A DNA stretch of 21,877 nucleotides from a virus (taxonomy: Duplodnaviria > Heunggongvirae > Uroviricota > Caudoviricetes), in IMG/VR virus record IMGVR_UViG_2695420643_000029; one strand, written 5' to 3'. The translations under genes were made by a program, and so were the position numbers. This document shows, in pieces, positions 5,975 through 9,018 of the stretch. Positions within the stretch are counted from its first letter, which is position 1; each line of letters begins with the position of its first letter. The notes beneath the pieces are model-generated. The model had not been told where the DNA came from. It worked only from the letters and a program-made list of their open reading frames with translations, and made no database searches.

Positions 5975-6823
5975 CTATTTAATACTCAGCAACTGCTCGA
6001 CGGTCATATTTTTAATTGCGCTTCGGTTTACAAGAGTCCAGCCCTGTTTCTCCAGATAAAGGCGGAAAGTGTCCAGGGTACAGACGAGAGCGCCATCAGG
6101 AACGGTTTCAGTGAATTCGACGTTGCCGAATTTGTCGAAGCGAACAACCAGAGTGCGCCCATCGCCCGGAATGATTTTGTTTGTGGGAGTGGTATTATTC
6201 TGGCGTAGCTCTGCTTCCATGCGGTCGAACTCAGCGATGTAGGCCTCTTTGAATGCAGCGGCTTTTTTGCCAGTGAAACCCATCACCAGGAAAACGAAGC
6301 CGTTTTTGGTGATTTGGTACATTGGGAGTTTGCGCCCGGTTGAGTCGGTGTATTCACTTGGCTTAAAATTAAGCTCAGTGAATTCTGAGGAACATTCCAG
6401 AGCTTCAATTTTTTGAATGACGTTTTTATGCAGCTTGCGGAAAAACTCTGCAACTGCAACAGACGTAGTGACAGCACGACCATTTTCGATGGTTACGTCA
6501 GGGTGAGAAAGGGTAGGGATAGTAGCCATGATGGCAGCCTCTAGTGATAAGTTGGTAAACTCACCACCGGAGGTGCAAATCTCATGGGTGGTGAGACGTA
6601 CAGGGTTTGCACTACCGGTCACTAGAGAATCCGGCCCGCCCGAAAACGGCCCCATACGCCCCACCATAATCTGAATGTGGCTGCGCTTTACGCATAAAAA
6701 AACCGCTTTGGCGCGGTTATGCGCTCTAGTGATCATCGGGGTGCAAATCCCGGCACCCGTTTTATGAGGTGCAGGTGCACTATAATTCCACCCGTTCTGG
6801 TTTTCAATAGCTACATCCAACAT
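5975..6823 (-). CDS. Rha-family phage regulatory protein (Phage_pRha-like domain), with possible ~98-aa N-terminal extension
   Basis: Rha-like core (...GRAVTTSVAVAEFFRKLHKNVIQKIEAL...PMYQITKNGFVFLVMGFTGKKAAAFKEAYIAEFDRME); AGGTGAG SD before ATG 6823; alternative internal start at 6529 (MATIPTLSHPD) with AGAGG SD. Confidence 0.7.
   Translation of the reverse strand: MLDVAIENQNGWNYSAPAPHKTGAGICTPMITRAHNRAKAVFLCVKRSHIQIMVGRMGPFSGGPDSLVTGSANPVRLTTHEICTSGGEFTNLSLEAAIMATIPTLSHPDVTIENGRAVTTSVAVAEFFRKLHKNVIQKIEALECSSEFTELNFKPSEYTDSTGRKLPMYQITKNGFVFLVMGFTGKKAAAFKEAYIAEFDRMEAELRQNNTTPTNKIIPGDGRTLVVRFDKFGNVEFTETVPDGALVCTLDTFRLYLEKQGWTLVNRSAIKNMTVEQLLSIK
6694..6718 (-). terminator. Terminator-like hairpin (AACCGC-N6-GCGGTT + U7) inside the 5' part of the Rha-like ORF
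   Basis: Minus-sense stem-loop followed by TTTTTTT; its intragenic position is unusual. Confidence 0.35.
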
Positions 6824-7234
6824 TTTCTCTCACCTTTCATCACTGAAGTGAACTTTGTTGATGCGGTGCCTGGTGCCTCCAGGTGACGTTAACCAGTTAA
6901 CAATTAACGCCGGATAATCCACCCATAACACTGATGCTTTTAACTGTGCCGCGTGCGCTCAGCCGCATTCACCGCATCACAAAATTCACTTTAAAAAGGG
7001 GCGGCAGGGCAGCCACGGAGTAGAACTGATGCCGCCAAGACTACACACAGCAATGTCGTTATTTACAACCGGAGGCGCACTCCCACCATTTAAATTTAAC
7101 AGACAAGACCGACTCTTTATGGATATCGGAAATGCGCCTTCGTGTTGTGCCCGGTTTTATTTCACCACCTCCGGGCTTTGGTGGCCTCGGCTATACCCCT
7201 ACAGCAAGAATATTGAATTAATCCAATAAATGGT

Positions 7235-7767: not shown

Positions 7768-8232
7768 CTATTTCTTCATGCGTTTCTGAGCTGCCAGCAT
7801 CTTTTCAAACGCTTCTTTGTAGAGTTCATTCTGACCTTTAAGCCTTTCGATTAGTTTTGCTTTTTCTGATTCGGGTAGGATTTCAAAAAGATCCAGTAAA
7901 TCAGCTTGTTGCTTGTTAACCATCCGCCAACCTTCGCCTTCGAAACTTTCGTCATAAGTTCCTGAGGAACGGACGTAGTTCATCAGATCAGCTAAATCAG
8001 GCCTCAACTCTTCAGGCTTAACTCTTAGTAATACAGCGAATTTTAATGCTGCATCAGTGTTTAGTGGAGCCTTTCCGTTGAGATAGTGGCTAACTGTGGA
8101 TTGAGTCTCAAAGCCCATTAGCTCAGCAGCAAGCTCCTGAGTCAGTTTGAGCTCTCTTTTTTTGGCATCCCAGACTGCGCGCAGACGCTGCGTAGCTTCT
8201 GGCGATGCGATTTCTTCGCGTTTTCTTCTCAT
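7768..8232 (-). CDS. racR: cI-like prophage repressor (XRE HTH), RacR-like
   Basis: 154 aa; HTH segment LTQELAAELMGFETQSTVSHYLNG; divergent to Cro-like ydaS; start very close to candidate -10 (leaderless-like). Confidence 0.7.
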   Translation of the reverse strand: MRRKREEIASPEATQRLRAVWDAKKRELKLTQELAAELMGFETQSTVSHYLNGKAPLNTDAALKFAVLLRVKPEELRPDLADLMNYVRSSGTYDESFEGEGWRMVNKQQADLLDLFEILPESEKAKLIERLKGQNELYKEAFEKMLAAQKRMKK

Positions 8233-8336
8233 ACCACCATCTTATGAACACAACTCATAATCTCAAACTGATATGGGTATTGATCATTTAAATTAGTATG
8301 GTTAATATTTTGACAGGCATTACTAAGGTGACCCTT
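8233..8336. promoter_or_regulatory. Immunity-region divergent promoter/operator segment
   Basis: Perfect inverted repeat TTATGA-N7-TCATAA (8241-8259); plus-strand TTGATC(8280-8285)-N17-TAATAT(8303-8308); minus-strand TTGAGA...TAAGAT immediately before racR ATG. Confidence 0.5.
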
Positions 8337-8612
8337 ATGACATTAGATGAATATTTGAAAAAAAATCGTGTACGACAGTCTTGTTTGGCCGCACTCGCTG
8401 GTTGTTCGCAATCGATGATTAGCCTCGTAGCTACTGGCCGTAGTCAGTTAAGCCCCGAGAAGGTATTACGTATCGCGGAGGCTACGAATTTCGAGGTTAC
8501 ACCTCATGAACTCCGGCCTGATATCTACCCGAATCCGACCGATGGTTTACCTGTTGGATGTAAGGCTAACACACAAAATACACCGGAGTTGATTCATGAA
8601 AATCAGGCATGA
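8337..8612 (+). CDS. ydaS: Cro-like HTH regulator YdaS
   Basis: MTLDEYLKKNRVRQSCLAALAGCSQSMISLVATGRSQLSPEKVLRIAEATNFEVTPHELRP...; AAGGTGA SD before ATG 8337; longest ORF starts 8298. Confidence 0.75.
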   Translation: MTLDEYLKKNRVRQSCLAALAGCSQSMISLVATGRSQLSPEKVLRIAEATNFEVTPHELRPDIYPNPTDGLPVGCKANTQNTPELIHENQA

Positions 8613-9018
8613 GCACATCGAATCAGTGCTGTTAGCCCTGGCAGCCGAAAAAGGGCAGGCGTGGGTCGCTAACGCAATTACTGATGAATATCTGCGCCAG
8701 GGGGGCGGCGAATTGCCCCTGGTACCAGGCAAGGACTGGAACAATCAGCAGAATATCTATCACCGTTGGTTGAAAGGTGAAACGAAAGCGCAAAGGGAAA
8801 AAATTCAGAAACTGATCCCTGCGGTTCTGGCAATTCTTCCGCGCGAGCTGCGTCACCGACTCTGCATCTTCGATACCCTGGAACGCCGTGCATTACTGGC
8901 GGCGCAGGAAGCGTTGAGTACGGCAATTGATGCGCATGATGATGCAGTCCAGGCCGTTTACCGGAAAGCACATTTCAGCGGTGGTGGGTCGCCCGGTGAT
9001 TCTGTCGTAGTGCATTGA
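8596..9018 (+). CDS. ydaT: YdaT-like protein (CII-position partner of YdaS)
   Basis: 140 aa MKIRHEHIESVLLALAAEKGQAWVANAITDEYLRQ...; overlaps ydaS end by 17 nt. Confidence 0.75.
   Translation: MKIRHEHIESVLLALAAEKGQAWVANAITDEYLRQGGGELPLVPGKDWNNQQNIYHRWLKGETKAQREKIQKLIPAVLAILPRELRHRLCIFDTLERRALLAAQEALSTAIDAHDDAVQAVYRKAHFSGGGSPGDSVVVH

Follow-up and report, generated by a model that had tools for sequence, protein, structure and literature searches.

The Rha-family gene and its 5′ extension

The DNA analyzed here, referred to as the window, is a 21,877-nucleotide stretch of a Caudoviricetes virus (IMG/VR record IMGVR_UViG_2695420643_000029). The ORF listing shows an open reading frame of 282 amino acids on the minus strand (5975..6823), in which the Rha core recognized by Pfam occupies residues 119–203. 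The initial annotation described about 300 nt of in-frame extension ahead of the Rha-like core, and the frame is indeed open over its whole length. Two ribosome-binding motifs had also been pointed out, and both are present in the sequence: AGGTGAG before ATG 6823, and AGAGG (plus-strand CCTCT, 6538–6542) 8 nt ahead of an internal ATG at 6529.

The suggestion that ATG 6529 could be the true start was borne out, as it is from here on that the sequence shows codon periodicity. In the leader, the three codon positions are about equally diverse (0.311/0.304/0.301 and 0.224/0.255/0.246), and a third-position excess appears after ATG 6529 (0.26/0.167/0.435). The equivalent ATG is found 53–57 nt after the C4 element described below in 17 of 17 loci, and in a P1-like phage the protein read from the annotated start of Icd has the same first 11 residues as the 184-aa form of Rha, a form that is also found among deposited proteins. 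Hence, the true Rha protein is the 184-aa product that starts at ATG 6529, and its gene, stop codon included, spans 5975..6529(-). Membership of the Rha family is indicated by matches to Phage_pRha (PF09669, E 2e-31) and TIGR02681 (E 6e-33), and the PHROG families that match the downstream gene are Rha-like and anti-repressor; on these matches, its product is classified as a putative antirepressor-type regulator. Genes kilR, ydaE and recE/recT follow downstream in the same orientation.

The annotated 5′ extension (6530..6823(-), residues 1–98 of the 282-aa ORF) lacks a protein-coding signature. Its pN/pS ratio is 0.87–0.94 and equal in all three frames, the control frames behaving alike. The long frame is interrupted in 7 of the 17 phage loci and in 53 of 118 sampled leaders, a figure that counts the matches listed in a pattern-selected and phylogenetically related sample, as do all leader counts given below. 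Even near-identical relatives (L009 and L010) differ by a frameshifting 1-nt indel. In phages of another type (L006), the frame is open for 609 nt upstream, up to a cII-like gene. Their upstream 116 residues gave no Pfam match, and an alternative ORF of 59 aa in another frame looks more protein-like than the extension; this very long extension may be due to chance.

An IsrK-like RNA, a C4-type RNA and their target sites

A sigma-70-like promoter is predicted at 6779..6807(-), with a −35 element TTGAAA (6807–6802), a 17-nt spacer and a −10 element TATAGT (6784–6779). It matches the consensus at 10 of 12 positions and ends 6 nt before the 5′ end of a short RNA of the IsrK type. By eye, each of the 17 loci has a promoter-like pair, differing in sequence, at an unchanged distance from the IsrK 5′ terminus, which is also where homology to distant phages starts (query position 59–60, equivalent to 6772/6771). 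Residues 1–17 of the 282-aa ORF would therefore lie upstream of the transcription start. Antirepressors of the Gifsy prophages are under LexA control; inspection of the module promoter by eye revealed no evident LexA box.

The IsrK-like RNA (6696..6772(-)) is made of hairpin 1, a hairpin that presents target site b1, target site a1 and an intrinsic terminator. It matches Rfam RF01394 over its full length with 68.6 bits (gathering score, 50), while the c4-a1b1 model (RF03163) reaches just 18.8 of the 46.7 bits required, in a region that the isrK match overlaps. The z-score of the IsrK fold is −2.3, and hairpin 1 is 97.7% paired in the alignment, all 6 of its 6 pairs showing compensatory changes. 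A score above threshold, a promoter-like site 6 nt upstream and a terminator are the features of the IsrK/seqA/c4-a1b1 leaders, and the RNA is the counterpart of P4 seqA and of the a1/b1 leader of P1. The terminator (6696..6718(-), AACCGC-GCCAAA-GCGGUU plus a U-run) had been recognized as a hairpin in the initial annotation. The hairpin is real, with slightly different limits: the stem-loop covers 6718–6701(-) and the T-run extends to 6696, instead of the 6694–6718 originally given. Under strict criteria, a hairpin followed by T5 or more was found 20–28 nt (mostly 23–25) before C4 in 89 of 128 leaders, with differing stems.

The second element is a C4-type antisense RNA (6584..6671(-)) whose 17-bp outer stem encloses two hairpins, of which hairpin 2 presents loop a′. 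The Rfam C4 model (RF01695) is matched at positions 1–87 of 87 with 78.1 bits (gathering score, 45), and the fold has an energy of −41.6 kcal/mol and a z-score of −3.1. Across 107 sequences, pairing in the outer stem stays fully (100%) canonical, while 4 of its 17 pairs show double changes. Double changes are found at 5 of 5 pairs of hairpin 1, and a CG pair of hairpin 2 is replaced by UA in 8 sequences. Pairing of stems was scored on a MAFFT alignment, and the IsrK terminator and C4 hairpin 2 were evaluated by direct parsing. This RNA is the counterpart of P1/P7 c4, P4 CI and Salmonella STnc1160.

Two segments of the C4-type RNA are complementary to sites found both upstream and downstream of it. 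Loop a′ (CUCUAGUGA, 6619..6627(-)) is complementary at 9 of 9 positions to both a1 (AUCACUAGAG, 6724..6733(-)), located in the IsrK-like RNA, and a2 (AUCACUAGAG, 6538..6548(-)). The single-stranded segment b′ (GUGCAAA, 6606..6612(-)) is complementary to b1 (GAUUUGCACC, 6740..6749(-)) on the IsrK-like RNA and to b2 (GAUUUGCACC, 6572..6581(-)). Within the window, complementarity to the targets thus amounts to 9/9 for a′ and to 7–10 nt for b′, and 127 nt separate b1 from b′. As in the C4 family, a2 (6539–6548) lies over the Shine–Dalgarno sequence AGAGG (6542–6538) of the Rha gene, with the ATG 8 nt beyond; in most leaders, the ATG is found 9–13 nt after the end of a2. In local folds, the mean pairing probability of the Shine–Dalgarno region is 0.70. 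Furthermore, CUCACCACC (6595–6587), which is the 3′ strand of the C4 outer stem, can pair with GGUGGUGAG (6568–6560) to form an alternative hairpin (6560..6595(-)) with b2 in its loop. This hairpin and the C4 outer stem are mutually exclusive; its pairs are 92–100% canonical, with compensatory changes at 4 of 9.

These pairings account for the repeats that had drawn attention to the leader. The two direct repeats said to occur twice each do so: CTCTAGTGAT at 6539–6548 and 6724–6733, and GGTGCAAATC at 6572–6581 and 6740–6749. The inverted repeats are also real, after small corrections. One pair is formed by CTCTAGTGA (6539–6547) and TCACTAGAG (6619–6627), its first arm having been placed 1 nt off at 6540–6548; the other is formed by CTCACCACC (6560–6568) and GGTGGTGAG (6587–6595), previously given 2 nt off as 6562–6570/6589–6597. 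Additional inverted pairs that had escaped notice are 6619–6627/6724–6732, 6603–6612/6741–6750 and 6566–6579/6606–6619. The same geometry, with other repeat sequences, recurs in every related locus examined. A chance origin of the repeats was considered and ruled out, as each 10-mer direct repeat has just two occurrences in the 21.9-kb window and loops co-vary with their targets across leaders.

The latter observation comes from 127 unique leaders, which contain 51 distinct a′ loops and 24 distinct b′ segments, each co-varying with the targets of its own leader. Complementarity to own targets exceeded complementarity to those of other leaders for a2 (8.5 vs 4.6 nt), a1 (6.8 vs 4.4 nt), b1 (6.9 vs 4.9 nt) and b2 (6.95 vs 4.8 nt), and in none of the four cases did any of 2000 permutations reach the observed mean. 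A pair of antisense segments complementary to upstream and downstream target pairs, with specificity that co-varies, is one mark of the C4 family. The examination of RNA structure and covariation in relatives, proposed in the initial annotation, thus yielded conserved stems with compensatory changes and loops that follow their targets.

The arrangement recurs in other phages. Among phage loci fetched by similarity, C4 was found at matching spacing in 16 of 16, and isrK scored above threshold in 15; the remaining locus belongs to a P1-like punavirus, in which the corresponding ATG is the annotated start of an Icd CDS. The tandem of isrK and C4 is present in phage P4 as well. The module behaves as a cassette, found before unrelated genes and in different operons: on the pR side, on the pL side, in P1, in P2-like phages and in satellites.

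Related immunity systems

In phage P1, c4 RNA is excised from a precursor by RNase P, represses translation and causes polarity on ant, so that the output combines translational repression and Rho-dependent polarity. The P1/P7 immI region is organized as c4-icd-ant1/ant2 (Citron & Schuster 1990 and Riedel et al. 1993, as cited in PMC8201110; Rfam RF01695 and RF03163). The window element belongs to the same RNA family by covariance model and has the same order: a1/b1, C4 with a′/b′, b2/a2, and the start codon, with a2 over the ribosome-binding site. In both cases, the loops set a specificity that varies between phages. The P1-like punavirus shares with the window the distance from C4 to the ATG (54 nt) and the first 11 codons (MATIPT..). 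There are also differences. Downstream in the window, one gene for a Rha-domain protein takes the place of icd and ant1/ant2, and the element is located in a Rac-like lambdoid prophage upstream of kilR-recET, whereas P1 is a plasmid prophage. In addition, the a1/b1 leader of the window scores as a terminated IsrK-type sRNA, unlike that of the P1-like locus, which falls below the isrK threshold.

A second parallel is found in the isrK-orf45-anrP-isrJ region of Salmonella Gifsy-1 (Hershko-Shalev et al. 2016, PMC4825925), where processing of the orf45′ RNA gives STnc1160. Experiments in Gifsy-1 have shown that the IsrK terminator is partly read through, that the processed STnc1160 RNA measures ~80 nt, that anrP is silent at the level of translation, that IsrK activates it in trans, and that anrP is coupled to translated orf45 (PMC4825925). 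The window likewise has a terminated IsrK, from which predicted read-through would enter a C4-like region, and then an antirepressor-type gene, whose AUG is at +244 (~+241 in Gifsy-1); IsrK is, in both cases, complementary to the region downstream of it. PMC4825925 does not use the a/b nomenclature of P1, and helix b-I of Gifsy-1 would correspond to b1:b′. Unlike Gifsy-1, the window has no isrJ that could be found, its flanking genes differ, and the orf45-like frame is fused to the Rha ORF, while the orf45 stop overlaps the anrP AUG (AUGA) in Gifsy-1. The fusion resembles an orf45-anrP arrangement of S. dysenteriae noted in PMC4825925.

Immunity of P4 involves seqA, the CI RNA (seqB) and seqC (summarized in PMC4825925 and PMC10111431), and relatives of CI and seqA are detected by the C4 and isrK profiles of Rfam (PMC10111431). 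In P4, the C4 match (8420–8507) and the isrK match (8615–8692) have the same order and orientation as in the window, and the processed antisense RNA has complementary sites on both sides. However, the isrK–C4 spacing is ~108 nt in P4 compared with 24 in the window, and the output described is not control of an antirepressor start codon: pairing of CI RNA with seqA/seqC causes premature transcription termination of the replication operon (PMC4825925).

Proposed control of the ATG 6529 start

Family membership, structure, co-variation, geometry, the lack of selection on amino acids and the location of the true start, all observed here, converge on one reading: the 6529–6830(-) region is, with high confidence, an RNA module of immunity/antirepressor control of the P1 immI, P4 and Gifsy-1 type, and not an N-terminal domain. 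The operation that we infer for this locus, from promoter and transcription start to processing, direction of regulation and uORF translation, would be as follows. Transcription would start around 6772 from the module promoter (6807–6779), and most transcripts would end at the terminator (6718–6696), yielding a 77-nt IsrK-like RNA with b1 and a1. Transcripts that read through would include the C4-type RNA (6671–6584), whose exposed a′ and b′ could pair with b1/a1 as well as with b2/a2, the latter located directly before the Rha-family gene and with a2 over its Shine–Dalgarno sequence. Acting in cis or after processing, C4 would pair with b2/a2 and, together with local hairpins, close the ATG 6529 start; the antirepressor-type protein would therefore not be made in the lysogen. 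The target copies on IsrK may compete for C4 as an anti-antisense or decoy, turning translation on as in Gifsy-1. AUGs 6667 and 6655, located inside C4, probably start an orf45-like uORF whose translation would open the downstream start. The alternative hairpin (6560..6595) may be a further part of the control. The outputs described for the three characterized relatives differ (translational repression with Rho polarity in P1, premature termination in P4, translational activation by IsrK in Gifsy-1), and judged by sequence alone any of them may apply here.

Two other explanations of the extension deserve consideration. One is that a genuine N-terminal ‘Ash’ domain exists and that the 282-aa protein annotated by PGAP is actually made. 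The ORF is open from 6823, residues 14–108 match Pfam Phage_ASH (E 2.6e-15; 57.2 bits vs gathering score of 26), PHROG profiles include the extension, the 282-aa form has been deposited from at least 1000 contigs, and even longer fusions are annotated in several phage records. Still, we regard this explanation as highly improbable. Codon periodicity and frame-specific pN/pS are both lacking, and 1-nt indels and stops interrupt the frame in relatives near and far. The conserved promoter and the 5′ end of the RNA are situated downstream of ATG 6823, and it is at this 5′ end, not at the ATG, that homology to relatives begins; in addition, the ORF contains an intrinsic terminator. The ‘domain’ coincides exactly with two Rfam RNAs and is joined to unrelated proteins (Icd, Rha and other antirepressors), and the Ash-matching CDS of P4 is the old conceptual ‘cI protein’ over the CI RNA. 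Hence, the initial proposal of a real N-terminal domain is not upheld. It had been reasoned that homologues with a conserved N-terminal domain and synonymous-site variation across the repeats would discredit an RNA leader. Domain homologues do appear, in the form of Phage_ASH, but the repeats co-vary with their partners instead of showing synonymous-site variation. That reasoning was misleading because Phage_ASH (PF10554, the source of ‘Ash protein family’ and ‘ash family protein’ annotations) appears to represent the isrK-C4 leader in conceptual translation and not a folded domain. In the window, in P4 and in phage ZX5 alike, the family coincides with the RNA genes, and the region has no coding signatures.

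The other explanation is that the leader works as an attenuator, or terminator–antiterminator, of a rha-kilR-recET operon, with regulation of the IsrK terminator or of a Rho-dependent site as in P4. An intrinsic terminator does lie within the leader, the alternative hairpin excludes the C4 stem, kilR, ydaE and recE/recT follow in the same orientation, and the P4 and P1 precedents involve termination or polarity (PMC4825925). Yet the module has its own predicted promoter and recurs before unrelated genes and in different operons, and its strongest and most conserved pairing, that of a2, covers the Shine–Dalgarno sequence, so that translation is indicated as the main step under control. The change measured in Gifsy-1 was 8-fold for transcription and 139-fold for translation (PMC4825925). 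Attenuation as the main function is thus considered unlikely. The initial view of a structured leader or riboregulator was right in kind, but not as an attenuator of the kilR-recET operon: the module is self-contained, with a predicted promoter of its own, and would regulate the Rha/antirepressor-type gene itself.

A further question, which adds to the RNA module without replacing it, is whether C4 is also translated. Two in-frame AUGs (6653..6667(-), reading MVGRM) lie at 6667 and 6655, at the 5′ end of C4. Counted from the IsrK 5′ terminus, their positions are +106 and +118, and they are in frame with ATG 6529, 46 codons upstream of it. In Gifsy-1, orf45 is translated and has AUGs at +107 and ~+119 (PMC4825925); the pair of in-frame AUGs is thus common to both, and AUGA is not, as the window frame continues without a stop, in phase, into the Rha ORF. 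An AUGA-type overlap was found in 3 of 118 leaders, and fusion in 80. Stop codons in the ant frame of the leader are depleted 5- to 6-fold (0.18 and 0.13 per sequence vs 1.08 and 0.65 expected); ribosomes therefore probably read part of the leader, and to call it ‘non-coding’ would be incomplete.

Translation from the C4 AUGs into the Rha ORF might either open ATG 6529 or produce an isoform of 226–230 aa, and we consider it a possibility to be taken seriously, if a little short of an even chance. Such an isoform would consist of Rha with an extension of 42–46 residues of arbitrary sequence. Besides the AUGs occupying the orf45 start positions, translated orf45 is required for anrP translation and its nucleotides are conserved while its amino acids vary, and an orf45-anrP fusion was noted in S. 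dysenteriae by the same authors (PMC4825925). The frame enters the downstream gene in the 80 fused leaders, the P1-like one included. Stops are rarer in the AUG frame only (observed/expected 0.03–0.18 vs ~1 elsewhere; 10 stops vs 53 and 45 in the other frames of distinct C4 sequences), with 15 of 16 candidate positions below the stop expectation in statistics that ignore shared ancestry. Against this, AUG 6667 has no Shine–Dalgarno sequence, 35 of 118 leaders stop ahead of the downstream ATG, amino-acid-level constraint is lacking, and the 230-aa form is absent from protein databases, an absence that reflects gene callers only. Moreover, the AUG lies within the C4 outer stem, and its conservation could therefore be structural.

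Stop depletion in the AUG frame of C4 suggests that the uORF mechanism of Gifsy-1 may be general to the family. In this speculation, which we hold to be rather doubtful, the antisense gene of most C4 family members, those of the window and of P1-like phages among them, doubles as the 5′ part of a frame that starts at the conserved AUG of the C4 stem and is fused to the regulated gene, kept free of stops with amino acids unconstrained, and ribosome transit acts as a general ON-switch. If so, transit through C4 would compete with C4 folding and processing, and fused versions would also yield a longer antirepressor isoform. The non-fused Gifsy-1 locus is the only case in which a uORF mechanism has been tested experimentally (PMC4825925).

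The RNA module family is already known, and it is the long gene annotation in databases that is misleading. An RNA leader is being carried as protein sequence in RefSeq/PGAP, PHROGs and Pfam (Phage_ASH); the Rha entry should therefore be trimmed to 184 aa, and two ncRNAs should be annotated. For the phage, the module marks the Rha gene as a tightly gated switch of the antirepressor type, located beside kilR-recET in a Rac-like prophage of Shiga-toxin-producing E. coli. Related modules are present in several further prophages of these genomes, with which a/b specificity could mediate cross-talk.

The isrK-C4 module of the 5' extension

The minus strand carries a 282-codon ORF (5975..6823) that is open without interruption; its Rha domain, as defined by Pfam, spans residues 119-203. 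Both ATG 6529 and ATG 6823 are preceded by Shine-Dalgarno (SD) motifs, AGAGG and AGGTGAG respectively. The initial annotation read the ~300 nt between them (6530..6823, codons 1-98) either as a real N-terminal domain or as a structured leader of the kilR-recET operon. When the window was scanned with Rfam at curated thresholds, two described RNA families were found in tandem inside this extension, both on the minus strand: isrK (RF01394, 6772-6696; 68.6 bits, gathering score 50) and C4 antisense RNA (RF01695, 6671-6584; 78.1 bits, gathering score 45). A predicted sigma-70-like promoter on the same strand (6807-6779; TTGAAA, 17 nt, TATAGT) stops 6 nt short of where IsrK begins, so that ATG 6823 lies upstream of the module's own predicted transcription start. 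The terminator-like hairpin noticed initially, a stem-loop (6718-6701) with a trailing T-run that scores as a minus-strand intrinsic terminator, is the IsrK terminator.

The repeats of the region were also recovered: CTCTAGTGAT at 6539 and 6724, and GGTGCAAATC at 6572 and 6740, each 10-mer without any other copy within the window. The inverted repeats are present (6539-6547/6619-6627 and 6560-6568/6587-6595), although some arms had been placed 1-2 nt off, and three further inverted pairs join the same words. The repeats can be assigned to the elements of the classical P1 nomenclature, all on the minus strand. Target sites b1 (6740-6749) and a1 (6724-6733) lie inside IsrK; a' (6619-6627) is in the loop of C4 hairpin 2 and b' (6606-6612) in a single-stranded joint of C4; b2 (6572-6581) and a2 (6539-6548) are found shortly before ATG 6529, with a2 overlapping the AGAGG motif. 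The CTCACCACC/GGTGGTGAG repeat corresponds to an alternative hairpin in which the 3' strand of the C4 outer stem pairs with downstream sequence, leaving b2 in the loop. Fold z-scores against shuffled sequences were -2.3 for IsrK, -3.1 for C4 and -4.6 for the downstream region of the window. The SD and the AUG are paired in the local fold, with a mean pairing probability of 0.70 for the SD region among 118 leaders. A mini-hairpin around the antirepressor AUG, GCCA-UCA-UGGC (6523-6535, minus strand, in the window), is conserved in all leaders of the 142 and 145 classes, with CG to UA co-variation at one pair.

Other RNA elements were detected in the window. The early leftward operon that holds the module also has a DicF-family sRNA (6999-7049, minus strand; 54.7 bits, gathering score 48), which ends in a terminator of its own (7016-7001) and lies ~190 nt 5' of the module promoter. 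The interval between the two is occupied by a sub-threshold STnc100-like match (6840-7009, minus strand; 41.8 bits vs 47). The Rfam scan also yielded a tRNA-like match (16401-16460, plus), STnc100 (16547-16740, plus) and the anti-GcvB sRNA AgvB (16741-16802, minus), a combination characteristic of EHEC lambdoid prophages. The same prophage region has two more toxin-antitoxin elements based on RNA, with the antitoxin RNAs RalA (1557-1735, plus; 219 bits), which adjoins ralR, and hok/sok-type sok (14009-14184, plus).

Related loci and co-variation

Identical copies of the locus exist in many STEC/O157 genomes, where RefSeq names the 282-aa product "Rha family phage regulatory protein". The flanking order in these copies (DUF1391, rha, kilR, ydaE, recE, recT, ralR, xis, int) is that of a Rac-like prophage. 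A sensitive DNA search of phage genomes returned 211 records, and in most matches listed homology begins at query position 59-60, the exact IsrK 5' end. Sixteen diverse loci were fetched, from Stx phages, a P1-like punavirus, a P2-like phage, Yersinia and Salmonella phages and a Uetakevirus. C4 was found in 16/16 and isrK above threshold in 15/16, with matching spacing; when the window is included, the distance from C4 to the downstream ATG is 53-57 nt in 16 of the 17 sequences and 47 nt in the remaining one (L004). Phage P4 itself has the same pair, and in GenBank LC710660 both ncRNAs and the short CDS are already annotated. In the P1-like phage, the gene annotated at the equivalent ATG is Icd, which has only its first 11 residues (MATIPTPTHPE) in common with the window protein. 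Hence, the mobile module starts where IsrK starts, reaches to about codon 11 and is joined to unrelated proteins.

Six IMG/VR prophage contigs (L038, L039, L056, L107, L125 and L133) harbor isrK-C4-Rha modules in tandem, two or three per contig, at a usual distance of ~655 nt (869 nt in L133). Modules of one contig carry different pairs of a' and b', each module with a separate Rha-like ORF (120-187 aa). Such tandems look like arrays of orthogonal RNA-gated regulators. In two Oslovirus Stx and Shigella phages, sRNA-Xcc1 (RF02221; 79.6 bits) is found downstream of the Rha gene (L009, 2524-2607; L010, 2523-2606).

When IMG/VR was scanned with a pattern based on the 5' half of C4, 128 unique leaders were obtained; the 127 that could be parsed comprise 51 a' loop variants and 24 b' segment variants. 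Complementarity to a leader's own targets was far above that to the targets of other leaders in all four pairings: 8.5 vs 4.6 nt for a'-a2, 6.8 vs 4.4 nt for a'-a1, 6.9 vs 4.9 nt for b'-b1 and 6.95 vs 4.8 nt for b'-b2, the observed mean being reached in 0/2000 permutations in each case. Stems also showed compensatory changes. Across 107 sequences, pairing in the C4 outer stem was canonical throughout (100%), and 4 of its pairs showed double changes; C4 hairpin 1 had compensatory changes at 5/5 pairs and IsrK hairpin 1 at 6/6; and the alternative hairpin was 92-100% canonical, again with compensatory changes. A terminator hairpin of variable stem sequence was present at a fixed distance 5' of C4 in at least 89 of the 128 leaders.

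Coding capacity of the extension

At the protein level the extension has homologues: residues 14-108 match Pfam Phage_ASH (E 2.6e-15), and the extension also falls within PHROG profiles. DNA-level evidence, however, speaks against a coding N-terminal domain. In the two largest length classes, leader diversity is flat across codon positions (0.311/0.304/0.301 and 0.224/0.255/0.246), and pN/pS in frame (0.87-0.94) is the same in two control frames; the leader is not under amino acid selection. Directly after ATG 6529, a third-position excess begins (0.47/0.374/0.546 and 0.26/0.167/0.435) and pN/pS falls in the true frame only, which identifies ATG 6529 as the true start, as had been considered initially. 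The extension frame is broken in 7/17 phage loci and in 53/118 sampled leaders; in the case of Ss-VASD and TL-2011c, two phages that are nearly identical, the shift comes from a 1-nt indel within the T-run of the terminator.

The Ash family appears to be a conceptual translation of the RNA. In phage P4 (NC_001609), the old CDS "cI gene product (AA 1-137)", kept in the record at 8168-8584 (minus strand), has its Ash match over the exact stretch with the C4/CI RNA, and C4 of phage ZX5 lies under a CDS annotated as a 37-aa "ash family protein". Judging by P4, L004 (1599-1712) and the window (6500-6784), PF10554 "Phage_ASH", PHROGs 995, 821, 6928 and 3960 and the NCBI "ash family protein" names are apparently conceptual translations of isrK-C4/CI leaders. 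Deposited forms of the window protein are 184 aa in 4 contigs vs 282 aa in at least 1000. In modules on the pR side (L006, L007, L012, L017, L008 and L013, ~1140-1750), the ant frame is open 546-660 nt upstream, to the end of a cII-like gene, and annotations call the 383-aa product of this long frame "antirepressor", "peptidase" or "Rha"; its extra 116 residues gave no Pfam match. In L006, a 59-aa ORF in a different frame (1293-1472) has a more protein-like appearance.

One signal is at odds with a purely non-coding leader: the frame of ATG 6529 has a deficit of stop codons. In the two classes, 0.18 and 0.13 in-frame stops per leader were observed vs 1.08 and 0.65 expected from column composition, while other frames were close to expectation. 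Candidate stop positions fell below expectation at 15/16 in frame and were balanced in other frames, and 83 distinct C4 sequences read from the conserved AUG contained 10 in-frame stops vs 53 and 45 in the other frames. The depletion can be explained by an orf45-type reading frame, known from the Salmonella Gifsy-1 locus, where orf45, of 45 codons, begins at two in-frame AUGs (+107 and ~+119 relative to the start of isrK), its nucleotides but not its amino acids are conserved, and it is apparently fused to anrP in S. dysenteriae (PMC4825925). The window counterparts of these AUGs, at 6667 and 6655 (+106 and +118), are in phase with ATG 6529. Among 118 leaders, fusion of the C4-AUG frame to the downstream gene was the commonest arrangement (80), followed by an earlier stop (35) and an AUGA-type overlap (3). 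Translation of 6667-6530 is probable, and graded no higher because the stop counts ignore shared ancestry; stop depletion gave no such support for 6668-6823, upstream of C4.

Regulation and place among known systems

The riboregulatory side of the initial structured-leader proposal stands; the module may additionally exert transcription polarity on kilR-recET, as with P1 ant or P4. By analogy with P1, P4 and Gifsy-1 (summarized in PMC4825925, PMC8201110 and PMC10111431, with general background on P1 and P4), the module promoter would produce mostly terminated IsrK. Read-through transcripts would include C4, which may be excised like STnc1160 in Salmonella. The a'/b' segments of C4 would pair with b2/a2 and, together with local hairpins, keep the Rha start closed, while IsrK, through b1/a1, would compete for C4 and activate translation. 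Ribosomes that initiate on the C4 AUGs may make the downstream start accessible or yield a longer isoform.

The module belongs to the described family on every feature testable here except the AUGA overlap with the uORF stop found in Gifsy-1, in whose place the window has an in-frame fusion of a type already in the literature. That relatives of P4 CI and seqA are picked up by the C4 and isrK profiles of Rfam is already stated in PMC10111431. The practical value of the analysis lies in correcting a widespread mis-annotation. Its only mildly new point is that, across the family, the C4 AUG frame seems generally to avoid stops and to be fused to the regulated gene.
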